From an uncultured Candidatus Poseidoniales archaeon (GTDB lineage: Archaea > Thermoplasmatota > Poseidoniia > Poseidoniales > Thalassarchaeaceae), in the NCBI GenBank assembly GCA_964588055.1, contig CAZPNT010000001.1:1-32595 (forward strand): a stretch of 32,595 nucleotides of DNA, given 5' to 3'. This document shows positions 15,653-24,941 of the stretch, piece after piece (position 1 is the first letter of the stretch; each line of letters opens with the position of its first letter). The position numbers and the translations under genes were made by a program. The notes beneath the pieces were generated by a model. It saw nothing but the letters and a program-made list of their open reading frames with translations. It made no database searches and was not told the origin of the DNA.

Positions 15653-15725
15653 ACAGATACAACCGTCGACCCATTCAAAAAACAGGCCTTGACTGGTGAT
15701 TCTGCCCCACAGGGCAGTGAGCCCC

Positions 15726-18380
15726 ATGTCCCCCCCAGAACCTCGACAGACTCTGCCTGATACTGACCCCGAAGAGACAGATGAATGGCTTGAATCATTG
15801 CGGACGGTTGCATCATCCCAGGGCGAATCAAGGGCACGGCTTCTTCTTCAGGAGCTAATGTCAGAGGCTTCTTCCTTGGGGATTGACATTTCTCCATCCA
15901 GGACTCCGTATCTCAACTCAATATCCATAGAGCAGCAGACTCCATATCCTGGAAAACTAAGCATCGAGAAGAAGATTCAGAACCATGTCCTTTGGAACGC
16001 AGCCGCTATGGTCTCTGATGCAAACAGGAGAATGGATGGAATCGGAGGCCACATATCCACATATGCCTCAAGCTCTACTCTGTATGAAGTAGGATTCCAA
16101 CACATTTTCAGAGGAAAGGAACACAATGGAATCGGCGATGCATTATACATTCAGGGTCACGCTAGCCCTGGAATATACGCTCGAGCATTCCTGGAGGGCA
16201 GAATTACCAGGGATCAGGTTTCAAACTTCAGGCAGGAGGCCTTTGTGGATGGCCTGTCTTCATACCCTCATCCGCGACTAATGCCAGAATTCTGGGAGTA
16301 TCCCACAGTTTCGATGGGACTAGGCCCACTCGGTGCGGTAATGCAGGCGAGATTCTGGAAGTATCTCCATCAAAGGGGCCTTGCCGATACTTCGGAGAGT
16401 CGGGTTTTCGCCTTCCTGGGTGATGGAGAGATGGACGAACCCGAGTCAATAGCTTCCATCGCAGTCGCTGGCAGGGAACAATTGGACAATCTAATTGTTG
16501 TTGTAAATTGCAATCTACAGCGCCTAGATGGGCCGGTCCGAGGAAACTCAAACATCATCCAAGAATTAGAGGGCCTTTATCGAGGTGCAGGATGGACCGT
16601 AATCAAGGTAATCTGGGGAACAGGATGGGATCGAGTGTTTCAAAGGGACTCAAGCGGAGAGTTACTAGAGAAGATGGAGGGAATCACCGATGGGGACTGG
16701 CAACGACTCAGCACCCTCTCAGGCAATGATTTCCGAGAAGAGATGTTCTCTGGAAGTGAGTCTCTTAAGGCCCTAGGAACCTCCCTATCTGACATAGAAA
16801 TCGACGGCCTTACTAGAGGGGGGCATGACCCAATCAAGGTATATTCTGCATACAAATCTGCCTTGTCTGCCGACGGCCCGGCTGTAATCCTAGCACATAC
16901 AGTAAAGGGTTGGGGAATCGACTCTTTCGAGGGTAGGAACTCAACTCATCAGAAGAAGAAGATGACTCTAGATGACTTGGTAGCTTATCGAGACGCACTG
17001 GAGATTGACCTCGACGACTCCATGCTTCAAGAAGATCCATTCATTACCCTCGAAGAAGACTCGGAGGAGATTAATTATCTCGCCGAAAGAAGAGCAACTC
17101 TCGGGGGGTCTCTTCCGTCAAGACCGCACTCGAAGATAAACTTCGAACTGCCCGGGGAGGACACGTACTCAGCCTTTGACCAAGGAACTCCGGGCGGACA
17201 GGAGGTATCTACGACAATGGCCTTCGTCCGGCTTCTCAGGAATCTGATGAAATCGGAAATCGGCTCTCGGGTAGTCCCCATCATTCCCGATGAAGGAAGA
17301 ACTTTCGGAATGGATCCTCTATTCAGCGAGTTTGAAATCTTCGCTTCCAAGGGTCAGAAGTACACTCCGGTAGATCACAAGATGCTTCTAAACTACAAAG
17401 AGTCAGAATCCGGCCAGGTTCTTCAGGAAGGAATATCCGAGGCCGGCGCTATCGCTTCATGGATATCCAGTGCAACTTCATATTCCAATGCGAATTCTCC
17501 CACAATGCCATTCTACACCTTCTACTCAATGTTCGGTTTCCAGAGAGTGGGAGATCAGATATGGAGTGCTGCAGATGCTCGGGCCCGGGGGTTCTTGATG
17601 GGGGCAACCGCGGGAAGGACCACACTGAATGGAGAGGGATTACAGCATCAGGATGGTCATAGTCTATTGATGTCCTCGACGGTACCTCACTGCCGAGCTT
17701 GGGACCCTGCATACGCCTACGAACTCGCGACTATCATTAGACATGGAATAGATGAGATGTGGGGGCAGAATCTTGATGTGTTCCATTATGTGATGCTGTA
17801 CAACGAGAATCAGCAGCAGATGCCCAAGCCACCAGACGTGGATGAAGGTATTGTAAGGGGGGCATATCTAATTGAAGAAGTGGGTGAGGGAAGTGAAAAG
17901 ATTAGACTACTCGGTTCTGGACCGATTCTAAAGAACGTTAGAGAGGCAGCTGCGGAGTTGCTTAGCGACCATGGAATATCTTCAGAGGTATGGTCCGTAA
18001 CTTCCTACGGAGAACTTCGTCGAGCAGGTCTTGAGCATGAGAGGACCAGACGCCTGAATCCAGATAATTCCGCAAAGGCATACGTCTCGGATTGTTTCGG
18101 TGATGAAACACCAACAGTGGCTACTTCTGACTACATCTCATCAGTTCCTGAGATGATTCAGAGATGGGTAGGAGGCAGGTACATAGTACTGGGAACAGAT
18201 GGATTCGGCAGATCTGACTCTCGCGAAGCTCTTCGTTCATTTTTCGAAATAGATACAAACAGCATCGTCGTTGCAGCACTCTCAGCATTGGAGCAGGACG
18301 GGAAGGCTCCTTCTGGCACCGTAGAGAAAGAAATGAAGAAGAGGAAACTCAATCAAAAGAGAACCGACAAGACAGAGTGA
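15726..18380 (+). CDS. aceE: pyruvate dehydrogenase E1 component, homodimeric (AceE) type
   Basis: About 884 aa. The N-terminal DPEETDEWLESL, GGHISTYASSSTLYEVGFQHIFRG, the ThDP motif LGDGEMDEPESIASI...NCNLQRLDGPVRGN, and the overall length and collinearity match bacterial AceE. The track ORF starts at GTG 15696, and ATG 15726 fits the AceE N-terminus better. Confidence 0.9.
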   Translation: MSPPEPRQTLPDTDPEETDEWLESLRTVASSQGESRARLLLQELMSEASSLGIDISPSRTPYLNSISIEQQTPYPGKLSIEKKIQNHVLWNAAAMVSDANRRMDGIGGHISTYASSSTLYEVGFQHIFRGKEHNGIGDALYIQGHASPGIYARAFLEGRITRDQVSNFRQEAFVDGLSSYPHPRLMPEFWEYPTVSMGLGPLGAVMQARFWKYLHQRGLADTSESRVFAFLGDGEMDEPESIASIAVAGREQLDNLIVVVNCNLQRLDGPVRGNSNIIQELEGLYRGAGWTVIKVIWGTGWDRVFQRDSSGELLEKMEGITDGDWQRLSTLSGNDFREEMFSGSESLKALGTSLSDIEIDGLTRGGHDPIKVYSAYKSALSADGPAVILAHTVKGWGIDSFEGRNSTHQKKKMTLDDLVAYRDALEIDLDDSMLQEDPFITLEEDSEEINYLAERRATLGGSLPSRPHSKINFELPGEDTYSAFDQGTPGGQEVSTTMAFVRLLRNLMKSEIGSRVVPIIPDEGRTFGMDPLFSEFEIFASKGQKYTPVDHKMLLNYKESESGQVLQEGISEAGAIASWISSATSYSNANSPTMPFYTFYSMFGFQRVGDQIWSAADARARGFLMGATAGRTTLNGEGLQHQDGHSLLMSSTVPHCRAWDPAYAYELATIIRHGIDEMWGQNLDVFHYVMLYNENQQQMPKPPDVDEGIVRGAYLIEEVGEGSEKIRLLGSGPILKNVREAAAELLSDHGISSEVWSVTSYGELRRAGLEHERTRRLNPDNSAKAYVSDCFGDETPTVATSDYISSVPEMIQRWVGGRYIVLGTDGFGRSDSREALRSFFEIDTNSIVVAALSALEQDGKAPSGTVEKEMKKRKLNQKRTDKTE

Positions 18381-18872: not shown

Positions 18873-19580
18873 TCAGTCAATCATTGTAATGTTGGAAAGG
18901 AAGTAGTTGTGCTTCAAAGCATCTTCCAGACTAATCCAGTCTGGTACTTCCCCCCTGAAGTCATCGTATCTGTGCCCCGGAATCAATCTCCAATCCGGAG
19001 GCAGACTTCTTAGGATTTCCTTGGCTCTAATCAAACTCCTCTGCTGTGCCTGTGGATCTCCTCCGGGAAGGTCTACTCTTCCAGCGCTCCTCACGAAGAG
19101 AAGATCACCAGCATGGTAGACACCATGCCCATGAAAGGTAACGTGACCGGGTGCATGACCTGGTGAATGAGTCACCGACAGTTGAATAGAGCCTGCAGAC
19201 CATCTAACAATTTCTCCGGGCGCACAGTCCCAAGTGTGTGTGAATTCTACACTTCTGAAAACAATGTGGCCCAATAGGCTAGGAACTCTGGCATCTTCAT
19301 GCCCCCAGACCTCCATTTCTGGGTATCTCTTGATCATACCCGGAAATCCTGCAGCATGATCTCTATGAGTATGCGTGTAGAGCAGATGAGTTGGCTCGAG
19401 ACCTTCTTCTTCCAGCTTACTACACCACTTTTTTGCATCGAACGGATCAATTATTGCAACGATCTCATTTGCTCTATCTATGAAGGCAGTATTCATGTTC
19501 ATCAGAGAACCCATTTGAGTTACCCACACCTCCACCCCATCTTCCCAAATTGTTGAATGAAACTCCCCGTCAGACAGCAC
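18873..19580 (-). CDS. MBL-fold metallo-hydrolase (glyoxalase II / hydroxyacylglutathione hydrolase-like)
   Basis: HTHRDHAAG (HxHxDH), HSPGHAPGH, a later GD...D, and GH near the C-terminus. The track ORF runs to 19748 and would overlap leuS. An in-frame GTG at 19580 (M-LSDGEFHSTIWEDGVEVW...) gives a typical MBL N-terminus and a 73-nt divergent spacer. Another ATG is at 19514. Confidence 0.8.
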   Translation of the reverse strand: MLSDGEFHSTIWEDGVEVWVTQMGSLMNMNTAFIDRANEIVAIIDPFDAKKWCSKLEEEGLEPTHLLYTHTHRDHAAGFPGMIKRYPEMEVWGHEDARVPSLLGHIVFRSVEFTHTWDCAPGEIVRWSAGSIQLSVTHSPGHAPGHVTFHGHGVYHAGDLLFVRSAGRVDLPGGDPQAQQRSLIRAKEILRSLPPDWRLIPGHRYDDFRGEVPDWISLEDALKHNYFLSNITMID

Positions 19581-19653
19581 ATACCGCGCGAGAAAGACAT
19601 AGAACAAAGTCGTAATGCATATACAAGCCATACTAAGCGGTAAGATTGAGCAA

Positions 19654-22509
19654 ATGTCGTACGACGCCCAAGAGTTAGAATCAAGATGGCAGAAGGAATG
19701 GTCCCAGGCCAGAGTATTCGAGGCCGAGATTGATGATTCTAAACCCAAGTTCTACTGCCTTGAGATGTTCCCTTACCCCTCTGGTCACATGCACATGGGC
19801 CATGTTAGGAATTACTCTATCGGAGATGCTATGGCACGCTTCCAGAGACTGATGGGGAAGAACGTACTCTACCCAATGGGTTACGACTCATTCGGAATGC
19901 CAGCGGAGAATGCCGCGAAGAAAGAAGGAGGGCATCCTCACGATGTTACACATAGCAACATCTCCAGTATCCGATCAGATCAAGAAAGAATGGGCTATTC
20001 ATATGACTGGAGGCGATTCTTAGCTACTTCAGATGTAGACTACTACCGTTGGAACCAGGAGATGTTCCTCATCCTCAATGAGAGAGGCCTGGTTGAGAGA
20101 AAGATGGCCCCAGTCAACTGGTGCGTTGACTGCGACACCGTTCTAGCAAACGAGCAGGTAAGGAACAATAGATGCTGGAGATGTGGTTTGGAGGTCATTC
20201 AGAGAGACATGGCACAGTGGTTCGTAAGAATGACAGAGTACTCCGACGAGTTGCTCGACGAACTAGAACATATCTCGTTCCCCGAGAATGTCAAGGCCAT
20301 GCAGAGAAACTGGATTGGACGTTCACACGGCGCCCATATCGACTTTCCCGTGGTGGACTCCGAATCAGTGATCGGAGCCTTCACTACTAGGCCAGATACG
20401 ATATTCGGAGTCACCTTCCTCACTTTGTCACCCGAGCATCCTTTGTGCGAGGAACTGTGCTCTGGCAGTGAGTGGGAAGAAGGTTGGCGAGCACTCAAAG
20501 AAGAATGCTCCCGAATGTCAGAATTCGAGAGAATGAACATGCTGAAGGAGAAGAAGGGAGTGTTCCTAGGCAGGTACGCGATTAATCCACTAAAAGATGA
20601 GATGGTTCCGATATATGCTGGAAACTTCGTGGTATCTACATATGGTACTGGTGCGGTAATGGCCGTTCCCGGACATGACCAAAGGGACTTTGATTTCGCA
20701 AATGAGTACGATCTTGAGATTCGGCGGGTTCTCGACGATAATGAGAATGGGAGCGCCAACAAACCATTGACCAGAGCATTCGAGGGATACGGACCAATGG
20801 TCAACTCCTTTGTCGAGGGTTTCGATGGACTTTCCGGTGATCAAGCGAAGAATGCCGTAATAGCTGCTCTAGAGAAGAAGAAGGCAGGCCATGGAAAGGT
20901 TGAGTACCGTCTAAAGGACTGGCTACTAAGCAGACAGAGGTTCTGGGGGACACCGATTCCAATGATCCATTGCGAATCATGCGGAATCGTCCCAGTGTCC
21001 AGAGAAGACCTCCCGGTTGAGCTACCTCTAGATGTGGTATTCACCGAACATCAAAGTGGTAATCCATTGGAATCTCACGCTAGCTTCGTGCAAACCAACT
21101 GCCCTAACTGTGGAAGTGAGGCAAGAAGAGAGACGGATACAATGGATACATTCTACGACTCTTCTTGGTATTTCATGCGCTTTTGCGATGCAAACAACGA
21201 CGACTCTCCTTTCGATCGCTCTGCAGTCGATTATTGGATGGGAGATGGCGTGGACCTGTACATCGGGGGGATAGAACACGCTGTAATGCACCTCCTCTAC
21301 GCTCGATTCTTCACAAAATTCACCAGAGATGCCGGAATGAACGAGGTTGGAGAGCCATTTGGCAGGTTAGTTTGCCAGGGTATGCTAAACGCTCCAGCTC
21401 CGTATTGCCCTGACTGCAATTCCGAATATCACGTTGACCTCTTCGAATCTGATTGCCCATCATGTGGCAAAACTCTCTCTAGCAGATCCGCGAAGATGAG
21501 TAAATCTCTTGGGAATACAGTTAGCCCAGAGGAGATGATATCCAGATTCGGAGCGGATACAGTACGACTGTTCATTCTTTTCGGGGCCAATCCAGAGGCA
21601 GGAATGGACTGGTCCGACAGTGCTTTGGAGGCAAACCATCGTCAGATTCACTCTCTTATCGATGCCATCGATCAAGCACTAGAACTCTCGGACTCACCAT
21701 CTAACATTGATGGATGGCTGATCTCAAGGATGAGAATGAGCCAGAATAGATGGATAGATGCAATGTCGGACGTAAGCCTCCGAGAGGGGGTGATGATAAG
21801 CCACTTCGAAATGCTGACTGATTGGAACTGGTATATTCGAAGAGGGGGTCGTGACAGGATGACTGCGATGCGATTTTTGGAAGGATGGATTCCAATGCTT
21901 GCTCCTGCGACACCCCACATTGCAGAGGAATTCTGGAACAAGTTTGGCCGAAAAGAACTTCTGGCAGTGTTTGAACTCCCCCCAATTAAGACGGATTCAG
22001 ATGACTTGCACATTTTGGCAGAGGAGGAATACGTGAAGACCCTCATATCTAGTGGGAGGAATCTGAGGACTCTCGCGGAGAGACACTCTGAGGAACCAAT
22101 TTCCAGAGTAGTGATTCAAACGTCACCGAAGTGGAAATCGGATTTGGCATCGGAGGCAATCAAGCTACACTTATCGGGATTCGACTTCAAAGAGCTCGGT
22201 CAGGAGCACGTCAAGTCTCTTGACATCTTCAAGGAAGAGTCCTCTAGGGGTGAGGTATTCCATACGTGGAACTCAATTACCATCGGAGGCAAGAAAAATA
22301 GGGGCAAACTCTACACTTGGTCCGACGGAGAGAGGTATCTGTTATCCGAAGGAATCGATGAAGTGGGGATAATCTCAGCAAACTCAGATTTCATTTCTTC
22401 TGCTCTAGGGGTCGAAACAGTCGAAGCCTACCCAGTAGGAGAAGCGGAAGATGTAGGCGGTAAGGCAAGGATTTCCTTCCCACTGGAACCTGGAATAGCT
22501 TTCCTATAG
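19654..22509 (+). CDS. leuS: leucyl-tRNA synthetase, bacterial-type catalytic core
   Basis: FYCLEMFPYPSGHMHMGHVRNYSIGDAMARFQRLMGKNVLYPMGYDSFGMPAE (HMGH = HIGH motif), VNWCVDCDTVLANEQV...CWRCG, MQRNWIGRS, CPNCGSEARRETDTMDTFYDSSWYFMRF, GGIEHAVMHLLYARFF and KMSKS (21493-21507). It is collinear with E. coli/Thermus LeuRS rather than the archaeal/eukaryotic cytosolic type. The start is taken at ATG 19654 (MSYDAQELESRWQKEW). Confidence 0.95.
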   Translation: MSYDAQELESRWQKEWSQARVFEAEIDDSKPKFYCLEMFPYPSGHMHMGHVRNYSIGDAMARFQRLMGKNVLYPMGYDSFGMPAENAAKKEGGHPHDVTHSNISSIRSDQERMGYSYDWRRFLATSDVDYYRWNQEMFLILNERGLVERKMAPVNWCVDCDTVLANEQVRNNRCWRCGLEVIQRDMAQWFVRMTEYSDELLDELEHISFPENVKAMQRNWIGRSHGAHIDFPVVDSESVIGAFTTRPDTIFGVTFLTLSPEHPLCEELCSGSEWEEGWRALKEECSRMSEFERMNMLKEKKGVFLGRYAINPLKDEMVPIYAGNFVVSTYGTGAVMAVPGHDQRDFDFANEYDLEIRRVLDDNENGSANKPLTRAFEGYGPMVNSFVEGFDGLSGDQAKNAVIAALEKKKAGHGKVEYRLKDWLLSRQRFWGTPIPMIHCESCGIVPVSREDLPVELPLDVVFTEHQSGNPLESHASFVQTNCPNCGSEARRETDTMDTFYDSSWYFMRFCDANNDDSPFDRSAVDYWMGDGVDLYIGGIEHAVMHLLYARFFTKFTRDAGMNEVGEPFGRLVCQGMLNAPAPYCPDCNSEYHVDLFESDCPSCGKTLSSRSAKMSKSLGNTVSPEEMISRFGADTVRLFILFGANPEAGMDWSDSALEANHRQIHSLIDAIDQALELSDSPSNIDGWLISRMRMSQNRWIDAMSDVSLREGVMISHFEMLTDWNWYIRRGGRDRMTAMRFLEGWIPMLAPATPHIAEEFWNKFGRKELLAVFELPPIKTDSDDLHILAEEEYVKTLISSGRNLRTLAERHSEEPISRVVIQTSPKWKSDLASEAIKLHLSGFDFKELGQEHVKSLDIFKEESSRGEVFHTWNSITIGGKKNRGKLYTWSDGERYLLSEGIDEVGIISANSDFISSALGVETVEAYPVGEAEDVGGKARISFPLEPGIAFL

Positions 22510-22516
22510 GTGTATC

Positions 22517-22861
22517 ATGTCTTCAAACACCTCTAGCACTGTCCTTTTCGACGACCAATGCGGAAAATGCACGAGATGGGCCGATTTCATTCGGAAGAGG
22601 GATCCAGATTCGAGAGTAAACTTAGTCGGTCAGAACAGTGAACAGGGAATGGAGATTCTGCGGAAAATACCAATGGAGTTGGAAGGCCTAGATTCCATTT
22701 TTCTGATTTCCGGTGAGGGCAGATGGCATTCAAAGAGTGCTGCAATTTGGAGAGTATGCAGGAAACTGGGATTTCCATGGTCGTTAGCATCCCTGGTTTG
22801 TCTGGTACCTTGGCCTATTCGGGATTACCTCTATGACGTCTATGCCAGAATGAGAAAGTAG
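22517..22861 (+). CDS. DCC-family thiol-disulfide oxidoreductase (DUF393)
   Basis: 114 aa. VLFDDQCGKCTRWADFIRKRD (D-x-x-C-x-x-C), SKSAAIWRVCRKLGFPW, and PWPIRDYLYDVYARMR match the DUF393/DCC consensus along the whole length. Confidence 0.8.
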   Translation: MSSNTSSTVLFDDQCGKCTRWADFIRKRDPDSRVNLVGQNSEQGMEILRKIPMELEGLDSIFLISGEGRWHSKSAAIWRVCRKLGFPWSLASLVCLVPWPIRDYLYDVYARMRK

Positions 22862-22879
22862 CCTCTGACAGGTGAGTTC

Positions 22880-23959
22880 ATGGAGCTCCAACATCTGGGA
22901 GAGCTATTGAGTGAAGACGAGAGTGCCAAGAGGCGCCGGGGGCGCCGGGGGCGCCGCCGAAGACCAAGGAAGGGGAAAAACCCCCCTAGGGAGAGAGGTA
23001 AGGGTGCCAAATCAGAGGAGATAGAGAGAGCACTGTCAAGATTTAACCTAGACCCCAGACCGATGGGAATCCCAGAAGAAATTGATCCACCACCTAGGAA
23101 AGTCCAGATCAGATGGAACACAAATGCAGTTTCGAGGGAGGTGCAGAATCGGGCAGGCAAGATCGCCTGTATTCCTGGTGAGTTCGGCTTCCTTCCGGAG
23201 GACAGGGTTCAGGAAATCGCATCTAATCTGGATGGGCTCCCAATCTCCTTAGAACAGGCTCTTTCTCTGAGAGCGGCACTAAATCAAGAGAAGAGCGTTT
23301 ACTCCCACTCAAAATTGATGCGTAGATCGAACGAACTTAGCAGGAGGTATGACTCAGGAGAAAGCGTGATTGCACTCTCAAAGAGGTTTGACGCCCCTCC
23401 TGTGAACACTTTCAGGGCTATTCTAACCGGACGAGGTTGGACAAAGACTAGGATTAAGGACACGCTAAACAAGAACCCTTCCAAATTAAACCAGAGAGAC
23501 AGAGAGCAATTCGAACTAGCAGAGTCAGTAGATCGGGTTAGTTCCGTAAACCAGACTGAGACTCAGAGTGCAGCAGAGGTTTTCGAAGAGATACTTTGTA
23601 CCCACTTTTCCTCGTTGGGGATTAGGTTCAGACGTCAGGAAGAACTTCTTAGAGAACAGACCAAAGAGGAAGGTAGAGCTATAATTACCCCTGATCTACT
23701 TCTGCTTGATGACGTCAGAATAAATGGGGTCCCATGTGCTTGGATTGATGCTAAGCACTTCTTTGGAGCGGATCTGAGGTTCCCGAAGAAGAAAACCCAG
23801 AAGCAGGTAGACAGATATGTTGCCGAATATGGACATGGAGCACTAGTTTATCGCCATGGATTCTGTGACGGACTTCGGTTAAGAGGGGCAATAAAGCTAG
23901 ACTCCAGCCCTCTAGATCTTAAGCCATTGGAGGATTTTCATGAGAACTCTAAGTCTTAG
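22880..23959 (+). CDS. CDIN1/C15orf41-like TPD-motif protein: predicted PD-(D/E)xK nuclease with arginine-rich N-terminal extension
   Basis: 359 aa, with a GGTGA Shine-Dalgarno-like sequence 8 nt upstream of the ATG. The C-terminal core is E-x(n)-ITPDLLLLDDVRINGVPCAWIDAKHFFG (PD...D-A-K), then QVDRYVAEYGHGALVYRHGF. This resembles, from memory, the human CDIN1 segment ...KTPDF(I/L)L...IHWIESKASFGD...FGPGLVIYWYGF. Upstream helical segments (SRRYDSGESVIALSKRFDAPPVNTFRAILTGRGW) resemble the HTH-like region of that family. The N-terminus is KRRRGRRGRRRRPRKGK. Confidence 0.6.
   Translation: MELQHLGELLSEDESAKRRRGRRGRRRRPRKGKNPPRERGKGAKSEEIERALSRFNLDPRPMGIPEEIDPPPRKVQIRWNTNAVSREVQNRAGKIACIPGEFGFLPEDRVQEIASNLDGLPISLEQALSLRAALNQEKSVYSHSKLMRRSNELSRRYDSGESVIALSKRFDAPPVNTFRAILTGRGWTKTRIKDTLNKNPSKLNQRDREQFELAESVDRVSSVNQTETQSAAEVFEEILCTHFSSLGIRFRRQEELLREQTKEEGRAIITPDLLLLDDVRINGVPCAWIDAKHFFGADLRFPKKKTQKQVDRYVAEYGHGALVYRHGFCDGLRLRGAIKLDSSPLDLKPLEDFHENSKS
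22932..22958 (+). repeat. 9-bp GC-rich tandem repeat x3 (GGCGCCGGG GGCGCCGGG GGCGCCGCC) inside a CDS
   Basis: Read directly from the sequence. It encodes RRRGRRGRRRR of the CDIN1-like protein and is far more GC-rich than its surroundings. Confidence 0.9.
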
Positions 23960-23963
23960 TTGA

Positions 23964-24941
23964 CTACATCAGTTCCCCTACCACACTGGAGAATGAAGCC
24001 AATCCAGAATTCTCTAATGCCTCAGAAATCTTGTCGATCCATTTGTCAACGAAAAAAGGGTCTTTGGGTACGATTACAACACTCTCTCCCAACATGCACA
24101 GCATTACAGACACACTATCTGAGTAGCCAGAATCGGCAATGGCCTTATTCGTCAAATCAATAATTTCCAATCTAGAAGCATCGCTCTCTAATCCACTTTC
24201 AGAGGAAAATATCAGTGCTTCCTCAATTATTTGGGACCACCTATCCTCGTTCCAATCTCCTGAACCGATTCTCTCCATGCCATTTTCTCCTGCTTGGCAA
24301 ATCTTTCTCCCCCACTCTTCACTATCGATGTAGCTTGAGGTGTGCATTCCAGTTTTTTCCTTCCAAGCCAGGAGTAGTGGGATTTTGATTGACCAGCCCT
24401 CCGAAAATCCTGGCCCATTATCCAAAAGAGTGCCGGAAAAAGGAGAACCTGACGCAATCCTCCTCTCCACCCCTCCCGAAGAAAGAGCAGTAGTGTCACC
24501 CAATCCACTTGATCGCTTCCTTTCCACAATATGAGCAACAAGGAAAGATCTCCTGACACATTCTTCATGGGGGATTCCAATTGCTCTCTGAATAGACATG
24601 GCAGATGCAACTGCACCGGATGCTGACATTCCGAAACCTTGAGACGCTGGCAAGGCCATCTTGATATTGAGTTCCCAATCAAAACCTCCGATTTCCGGAA
24701 TATTAGTAACTAATTCAGACAGCACATCTTCGTACATGCTTGAGTCGTACTCAATTTCTTGGAATCTAACACTTAGCTCTCCAGAACCCTCCTCTCCTTT
24801 GGCTATTGCTTCGACTCCATCTTTTATGCAAATACCTACGCCCCTACTACCTTGATTCACAGGATCTTCACTTGAGTCATCAATTGTGAAAAGCAGGGTG
24901 ATGTGCCCCCCGCAGTGGCCCCTGCCCAGTACTGTAGACAT
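23964..24941 (-). CDS. pantoate kinase (archaeal CoA pathway, GHMP kinase superfamily, COG1829-like)
   Basis: 325 aa. The N-terminal GGHITLLFTI...DPVNQGSRGVGICIKDGVEA resembles the P-x-HITGFF...GS-x-GAG block of archaeal pantoate kinases. The GHMP motif is LPASQGFGMSASGAVASAMSI. Confidence 0.65.
   Translation of the reverse strand: MSTVLGRGHCGGHITLLFTIDDSSEDPVNQGSRGVGICIKDGVEAIAKGEEGSGELSVRFQEIEYDSSMYEDVLSELVTNIPEIGGFDWELNIKMALPASQGFGMSASGAVASAMSIQRAIGIPHEECVRRSFLVAHIVERKRSSGLGDTTALSSGGVERRIASGSPFSGTLLDNGPGFSEGWSIKIPLLLAWKEKTGMHTSSYIDSEEWGRKICQAGENGMERIGSGDWNEDRWSQIIEEALIFSSESGLESDASRLEIIDLTNKAIADSGYSDSVSVMLCMLGESVVIVPKDPFFVDKWIDKISEALENSGLASFSSVVGELM

Follow-up and report, generated by a model that had tools for sequence, protein, structure and literature searches.

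The gene on the forward strand at positions 22880 to 23959 of the 32,595-nucleotide stretch of DNA analysed here (contig CAZPNT010000001.1 from its first position; hereafter the window) encodes a 359-residue member of the TPD/CDIN1 family in which the metal-binding and catalytic set E236/D272/D290/K292 is intact (coordinates include the stop codon). The host is a Marine Group IIb (MGIIb) archaeon of the family Thalassarchaeaceae, order Poseidoniales. Human CDIN1 (C15orf41) is mutated in a rare anaemia. By homology with the human enzyme, we consider it reasonably probable that the archaeal protein is a metal-dependent RNA nuclease that acts independently of Codanin-1, the partner of human CDIN1, and whose basic N-terminal tail would bind nucleic acids. 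Archaeal homologues of CDIN1 are already known, having been reported in 2020 (PMC7092493) and annotated by NCBI; only the possible transfer of the gene from a eukaryote or virus to an archaeon and the conserved basic tail did not turn up in the literature searched. An earlier note on this DNA had proposed the open reading frame (ORF), an archaeal host and the relationship to CDIN1. The ORF, its length and every peptide quoted from it were confirmed in the sequence, and the other two proposals held up as well.

The Pfam TPD profile (PF14811) matches residues 210-334 with 68 bits against a gathering cut-off of 27 (E = 1e-18), far more than chance would give, and vertebrate CDIN1 proteins share this assignment. 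NCBIfam gave no meaningful match to the protein, and phmmer against PDB sequences returned chance-level matches only. An exhaustive sequence search of 1.84 billion cluster representatives at a threshold of E <= 1e-3 matched 1,099 clusters, most of which align to query residues 75-345 or thereabouts; they include a Saprolegnia protein that UniRef names 'CDAN1-interacting nuclease 1' (P0170, E = 1.1e-36). The closest proteins (87-92% identity) come from marine metagenome-assembled genomes (MAGs) named Euryarchaeota TMED164 or Candidatus Thalassarchaeaceae, and several of them already bear the NCBI name 'TPD domain-containing protein'. For the comparison with animals, a working human CDIN1 sequence that fits 20 residue numbers cited in papers served as bait only, since an exact look-up of it was negative. 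It fetched named vertebrate CDIN1 proteins, on which the comparison was based; the best of them (P0375, 281 residues) shares 97% identity with the bait. Against P0375, BLASTP of the archaeal protein gave 30% identity over 84 residues (E = 9e-7). When a profile of 64 Marine Group II (MGII) orthologues was aligned with a profile of 20 vertebrate CDIN1 proteins, hhalign returned a probability of 96.6%, where the earlier note had set its refutation threshold at less than 50%, with E = 6.3e-10 over 194 columns (query 150-352, CDIN1 65-278) and a profile identity of about 24%. The aligned part spans the second half of the N-domain and the entire nuclease domain.

The catalytic residues of the human enzyme fall within this alignment. 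In human CDIN1, E166, D196, E214 and K216 are catalytic, Mg2+ is modelled on the first three, and R101 and R126 contact nucleic acid and Q232 contacts RNA in the model (Brolih et al., 2026; PMC13463051). E236 (codon 23585-23587) pairs with E166 in the hhalign alignment and is Glu in 137 of 137 diverse homologues; D272 of the TPD motif (23693-23695) pairs with D196 in both BLASTP and hhalign and is Asp in 134 of 135. By the same two methods D290-A-K292 (23747-23755) pair with E214-S-K216, position 290 being Asp in 121 homologues and Glu in 13, and position 292 Lys in all 134. The spacing of the tetrad is the same in both proteins (18 residues from D to D/E, 20 from D to K). Outside it, hhalign pairs D218 with human D147, which is invariant in vertebrates, R179 (23414-23416) with R101 (a column with 120 Arg and 12 Lys among the 137), K198 with R126 and Q309 with Q232. 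The core reads ITPD (residues 269-272, 23684-23695), LLLLDDVRINGVPCAW (273-288), IDAK (289-292, 23744-23755) and HFFG (293-296, 23756-23767), with YGHGALVYRHGF further on at residues 317-328 (23828-23863). The peptides of the earlier note are thus all present, although the range it gave for this core, 23686-23755, begins 2 nt late and ends at IDAK rather than at HFFG.

An AlphaFold2 model built from the 64-sequence alignment (mean predicted local distance difference test, pLDDT, 85.7; predicted template modelling score, pTM, 0.79) divides the protein into a disordered basic N-terminal tail (residues 1-43, 22880-23008; pLDDT < 50), a conserved linker (44-72, 23009-23095), a helical N-domain that resembles a helix-turn-helix (HTH) fold (73-200, 23096-23479) and a C-terminal PD-(D/E)xK nuclease domain (201-359, 23480-23956). 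The linker consists of a helix (44-53) with the pattern E-x-x-R-A-x-x-R-F followed by an extended P-x-P-M-G-x-P segment, and is placed confidently against the core (pLDDT 73-93). Vertebrate CDIN1, at 281 residues, lacks this whole N-terminal region, that is, the 43 disordered basic residues as well as the helix and the PMG segment. The N-domain, with helices over 86-198, contains R179 and K198 and bears out the HTH-like helical region that had been placed ahead of the core. In the C-domain, DSSP assigned helix 225-245, strand 250-252, helix 253-264, strands 273-281 and 284-292, helix 300-317 and strands 320-324 and 337-341. These elements follow the alpha-beta-beta-beta-alpha-beta order that characterises PD-(D/E)xK nucleases and that the earlier note required, and a domain-only model agrees with it. 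E236 lies in the first helix, D272 directly ahead of beta2, and D290 and K292 within beta3 of the predicted models.

Structure searches point to viral relatives and, more weakly, to the wider superfamily. Against the viral predicted structures of BFVD, the full-length model matched an unnamed viral protein with E = 1e-22 (template modelling score 0.68 normalised to the query and 0.80 to the target), a 'TPD domain-containing protein' of Powai lake megavirus (2.6e-11) and the Mimivirus 'CDAN1-interacting nuclease 1' (1.9e-7). Foldseek against the PDB gave nothing significant for either the full-length or the domain-only model. Nonetheless, 20 of the top 21 matches of the domain are PD-(D/E)xK enzymes, each non-significant, and the weak matches include BsaWI, BstEII, BamHI, EcoO109I, the DdmD nuclease domain, SfsA, the R2 endonuclease, Hef/XPF, influenza PA-N and bunyavirus cap-snatching endonucleases. 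In the PDB the family profile matched phage T7 endonuclease I alone, in the segment E...TPD (E = 0.044). The restriction-endonuclease-type matches that the earlier note expected were thus obtained, at non-significant scores, but no Hjc chain appeared in the PDB profile search or among the listed top 50 Foldseek matches of the full-length protein and the domain. The order of core elements and the placement of the acidic residues and the lysine are as in solved nucleases such as T7 endonuclease I, type II restriction enzymes, PA-N and Hef/XPF, whereas the accessory domains differ and neither sequence nor Foldseek scores reach significance; the resemblance is at the superfamily level only. The profile search found no CDIN1 chain in the PDB, because CDIN1 was resolved in neither cryo-EM study (PMC13463051).

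The earlier note described the substrate of human CDIN1 as still unclear, and an earlier study had found the protein without nuclease activity on many DNA and RNA substrates (PMC7261414). That statement is now outdated. Brolih et al. (2026; PMC13463051) describe human CDIN1 as a Mg-dependent 3' RNA exonuclease acting on double-stranded RNA and RNA:DNA hybrids; it cuts only duplexes that contain RNA, degrades only their RNA strands, requires a free 3' end, and is inactivated by D196A/E214A. In the same work, the positively charged coiled-coil domain of Codanin-1 is a substrate 'feeder' that extends the activity of CDIN1. By homology, the archaeal protein would most likely bind nucleic acid through its helical N-domain and cut with its C-terminal PD-(D/E)xK domain, as a ribonuclease that depends on a divalent metal, shortens RNA from a free 3' end and favours RNA duplexes or, in RNA:DNA hybrids, the RNA strand. 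Codanin-1 is reported only from animals and a few protists (PMC7092493), and we found no report of it in archaea in the literature. The human contact residues N146, A160 and D171 are replaced by V217, S230 and T241 in the hhalign alignment, while the interface residues R22 and R26 of human CDIN1 fall outside the aligned part. Because no Codanin-1 is reported in archaea and these contacts are not kept, the archaeal enzyme should work on its own. We hypothesise that its basic tail would supply in cis the grip on nucleic acid that the basic coiled coil of Codanin-1 supplies in trans in humans, and would thus take the place of the feeder.

The tail itself is genuine coding sequence, retained in an organism without a nucleus. 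The arginine-rich motif of the earlier note is present as RRRGRRGRRRRPRKGK at residues 18-33 (22931-22978), and loci with 68-92% identity to the query share this Arg run. At least 8 Arg or Lys residues within a 16-residue window were found in 47 of 64 MGII proteins, and at least 6 in 59. The tail is Arg-rich in Thalassarchaeaceae and richer in Lys, Ser and Asn elsewhere in MGII.

Several points weigh against a stand-alone RNA nuclease with an adapted tail. RNA specificity is transferred from a human protein with about one quarter profile identity, the pairwise match covering 84 residues only, and D290 stands where vertebrates have Glu, though Asp is the family majority. None of the solved PD-(D/E)xK structures matches the nuclease domain at a significant level by itself (best E = 0.025). 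Human CDIN1 on its own is weak and makes a single 2-nt cut only at protein concentrations above 250 nM (PMC13463051), so that a partner-less archaeal enzyme may behave differently or have a partner as yet unknown. Finally, relatives of the diatom type also have basic N-terminal patches, possibly nuclear localisation signals (NLSs), and the archaeal tail could therefore be partly inherited rather than adapted.

We scanned one genome per GTDB species with a 10-sequence alignment as query and found 418 loci that encode a relative, which provides the phyletic survey proposed in the earlier note; taxonomy and synteny counts rest on the best 80 of these. Seventy-nine of the 80 are titled MGII/Poseidoniales, Thalassarchaeaceae, or generic Euryarchaeota, Methanobacteriota or Thermoplasmatota MAGs, the exception being a contig titled Chloroflexota with the same MGII gene order. 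On this contig (L037, PBEM01000001.1, 'Chloroflexota bacterium isolate SP321') the locus is of the MGII type, leuS-DCC-TPD-GHMP-rpoD, and the encoded TPD protein agrees in all of the first 75 residues with that of contig L035, whose title is Methanobacteriota archaeon. Mis-binning of an archaeal contig into a bacterial MAG is the probable explanation. Within the scope of these searches, no prokaryotic TPD protein was seen outside MGII-type archaea.

The gene occupies a conserved chromosomal slot. In all 80 loci, as far as the contigs extend, the order is leuS(+), an optional DCC gene(+), TPD(+), a GHMP kinase gene(-), rpoD(-) and the genes for ribosomal proteins S11(-), S4(-) and S13(-). In the window, leuS (leucyl-tRNA synthetase, 19615-22509, +; Pfam and synteny) is followed by a gene for a DCC1-like thiol-disulfide oxidoreductase (22517-22861, +; Pfam PF04134), a variable occupant of the slot, and then by the TPD gene. 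A convergent gene for a pantoate-kinase-like GHMP kinase (23964-24941, -; Pfam, NCBIfam and conserved synteny), 4 nt from the TPD stop codon, marks the end of the TPD transcription unit. Upstream, leuS is found in nearly all of the 80 loci wherever the sequence extends far enough, while no DCC gene was detected in roughly 30, in most of which the gap between leuS and TPD is about 40-70 nt. The TPD gene of the Poseidoniaceae (MGIIa; 43-55% identity) sits in the same slot, yet a gene of 916-937 codons with thrombospondin type 3 (TSP_3) repeats separates it there from leuS, at the place of the DCC1-like gene (L113:3129-5942 and L114:3144-5894). This insertion, together with the coming and going of DCC, indicates that what is conserved is a slot beside the rpoD/ribosomal-protein block rather than a tight leuS operon or a shared pathway. 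The conservation of the slot indicates vertical inheritance since the ancestor of the Poseidoniales, and retention of the gene at a fixed locus across the 418 species genomes indicates a housekeeping-type role.

The operon with leuS and DCC proposed in the earlier note is probable for this genome, the spacers being exactly 7 nt (leuS-DCC) and 18 nt (DCC-TPD), and fails as a tight linkage in the Poseidoniaceae. A simple TATA-box scan found no TATA-like box upstream of leuS, DCC or TPD. A Shine-Dalgarno-like AGGTGA (22870-22875, +) lies 4 nt upstream of the ATG at 22880, and a GGTG-type motif precedes the TPD ATG in 52 of 53 orthologous loci. With short spacers, Shine-Dalgarno-like motifs and no TATA-like box immediately ahead of DCC or TPD, the three genes are probably transcribed as one unit in the source genome.

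Beyond MGII, the family is found in many eukaryotes and their viruses. The nearest relatives are CDIN1-like proteins of diatoms and other marine protists (32-45% identity over the core), including MMETSP transcripts and EukProt entries of Chaetoceros neogracilis and Cylindrotheca fusiformis. Many of them have a basic patch upstream of the core and they cluster with MGII in neighbour-joining trees, but they are longer (about 450-770 residues), with Cys-rich (Stc1-like) or other N-terminal extensions. Their contigs are sparse and carry eukaryote-type genes (ankyrin, Kelch, MCM, BRO1, retroelement protease). Giant-virus MAG contigs of up to 476 kb also carry family members (27-39% identity), and further relatives are encoded on gene-dense contigs rich in ORFans, whose genes for thymidine kinase, an NAD-dependent ligase, F-box or zf-MYND proteins are typical of giant viruses. 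On two independent giant-virus-like contigs the TPD gene is one small ORF away from thymidine kinase (L081:8001-8885 and L115:6001-6909), and on a third it is directly upstream of an NAD-dependent DNA ligase gene (L112:8001-8816); such neighbours hint that the viral gene may be connected with DNA replication or with precursor metabolism. The giant-virus proteins (Mimivirus, Powai lake megavirus and the giant-virus MAG contigs) are full-length structural matches, apparently stand-alone like the archaeal protein and about 260-300 residues long. Unlike it, they have no comparable basic tail in the examples examined (the N-terminus of P0320 has only 20 residues), and they form a separate clade in the tree.

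The MGII clade attached within the diatom-type group in 72 of 100 bootstraps of a neighbour-joining tree of the core region, and MGII monophyly had 55% support; the method is weak and the tree effectively unrooted. According to Swickley et al. (2020; PMC7092493), Euryarchaeota are the only archaeal phylum with C15orf41 orthologues, and the human-archaeal BLAST score is oddly better than the human-choanoflagellate one. Together with a distribution over many eukaryotes and their viruses and a single archaeal order, the tree is more economically explained by a transfer into the MGII ancestor, and we lean towards a horizontal origin of the gene. The earlier note had suggested that a prokaryotic member could help reveal the ancestral function of the family. 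This is doubtful, since among prokaryotes the gene was seen here only in MGII-type archaea, and these cluster with diatom-type proteins in the tree, a hint of horizontal transfer; restriction to one archaeal order likewise argues against a window on ancestral function.

A chimeric relative of 562 residues (P0121, L082:2140-3828) was found on a 42-kb contig (Logan SRR24302422). Its C-terminal ~300 codons are about 80% identical at the nucleotide level to the TPD genes of Thalassarchaeaceae (L042, L044) and it clusters with MGIIb in 100 of 100 bootstraps, while a Cys-rich RING-like domain of ~245 residues takes the place of the Arg-rich tail. The rest of the contig, with dense ORFans, a RING-H2 protein and a DUF7796 protein, shows no similarity to the MGII loci compared, and the contig may come from an MGII-associated virus or mobile element in which a host gene was captured. 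These elements can be joined into one tentative scenario, which as a whole we hold to be possible but rather doubtful. The ancestor of the Poseidoniales might have acquired a CDIN1-type RNA nuclease from a diatom-like marine eukaryote or its giant virus and kept it in the same slot ever since; an NLS-like tail of the donor would now be an in-built 'feeder' that confers independence from Codanin-1, and a virus-like element associated with Thalassarchaeaceae (P0121) would later have captured the gene and fused it to a RING-like zinc-finger domain.

The fold and the genomic context are also compatible with other functions. The protein could be a structure-specific DNA nuclease that resolves junctions or takes part in repair or replication, as in the original Hjc-like reading of C15orf41. 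The one solved protein matched by the family profile is indeed a junction resolvase, the weak Foldseek matches include Hef/XPF and type II restriction enzymes, and the viral genes adjoin a DNA ligase gene or lie close to thymidine kinase. However, all DNA-nuclease matches are non-significant and Hjc is missing from sequence and fold matches alike. Moreover, human CDIN1 was inactive on many DNA substrates, Holliday junctions included, with or without Codanin-1 (PMC7261414), and it cuts RNA strands only (PMC13463051), which leaves this option unlikely. The fold itself is no obstacle to a ribonuclease, as PA-N and the bunyavirus endonucleases show that PD-(D/E)xK enzymes can cut RNA. Such an activity might serve leucyl-tRNA synthetase, for instance in processing or quality control of tRNA 3' ends, with leuS-DCC-TPD as a functional operon. 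A 3' RNA exonuclease would suit this work, the spacing and the signals between the three genes fit it, and leuS precedes TPD in nearly all Thalassarchaeaceae-type loci of the 80 with enough sequence, including those without DCC. Yet the variable DCC gene and the TSP_3-repeat gene of the Poseidoniaceae break the arrangement, and eukaryotic and viral homologues lack any such linkage; we judge a function tied to leuS to be improbable.

We give even less credence to two further possibilities. The helical N-domain and the strongly basic tail would suit a non-catalytic nucleic-acid-binding or regulatory protein for which the nuclease fold is a mere scaffold, and nuclease assays on human CDIN1 failed for years (PMC7261414). 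Nevertheless, 137 homologues of archaeal, eukaryote and giant-virus type keep the four catalytic positions unchanged or with conservative substitutions only, whereas inactivated nucleases usually lose such residues, and the human activity has since been shown and abolished by mutation of two of them (PMC13463051), which makes a loss of catalysis very improbable. A nuclease of a defence or restriction system, or part of a mobile element, would likewise fit the PD-(D/E)xK fold, the weak matches to restriction enzymes and the related copy P0121 on its virus-like or mobile-looking contig. But no PADLOC match was obtained at E <= 0.1, no methylase or other defence partner is found nearby in the window, and the gene is present order-wide and holds a fixed position among housekeeping genes in each of the 80 loci, so we see very little chance of a role of this kind. 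The Codanin-independent RNA nuclease remains the interpretation that we prefer.

Poor conservation of the first nine residues leaves the true start of the TPD protein uncertain. Initiation at a TTG at 22907 (codon 10) would give a 350-residue form that is used in many database entries, including NCBI's, and entries are divided between the two forms. One locus (L014) has an in-frame stop within the region of residues 1-9, which favours the downstream TTG in at least some genomes. The Arg-rich tail is retained with either start. A scan for sigma-70 promoters and terminators was set aside as inapplicable to archaea, the 'terminators' within the Arg run being artefacts of composition, and we attribute an antisense ORF (22840-23160, -) to shadowing by the G-rich Arg codons. 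Further upstream, the start of leuS is probably the second Met, MSYDAQELESRWQ..., at about 19654, rather than 19615 as listed. A divergent gene for a metallo-beta-lactamase-fold protein (18873-19748, -) overlaps the leuS ORF in its long TTG-initiated listing, which is likely over-extended. The window also encodes an 894-residue homodimeric-type pyruvate dehydrogenase E1 (15696-18380, +; PDH_E1_M and transketolase domains) that is syntenic in many MGIIb loci and is followed by a 164-residue ORF with no Pfam match.

The activity of CDIN1, a human disease protein, was pinned down only in 2026; the protein has no experimental structure and requires solubilising mutations. A compact archaeal orthologue with all of the catalytic residues and no Codanin-1 would be a practical subject for crystallography, and would help to separate the intrinsic nuclease activity of the family from the contribution of Codanin-1. 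The gene described here is therefore best regarded not as a discovery but as a reagent-level lead, a tractable, partner-free model for a disease nuclease.

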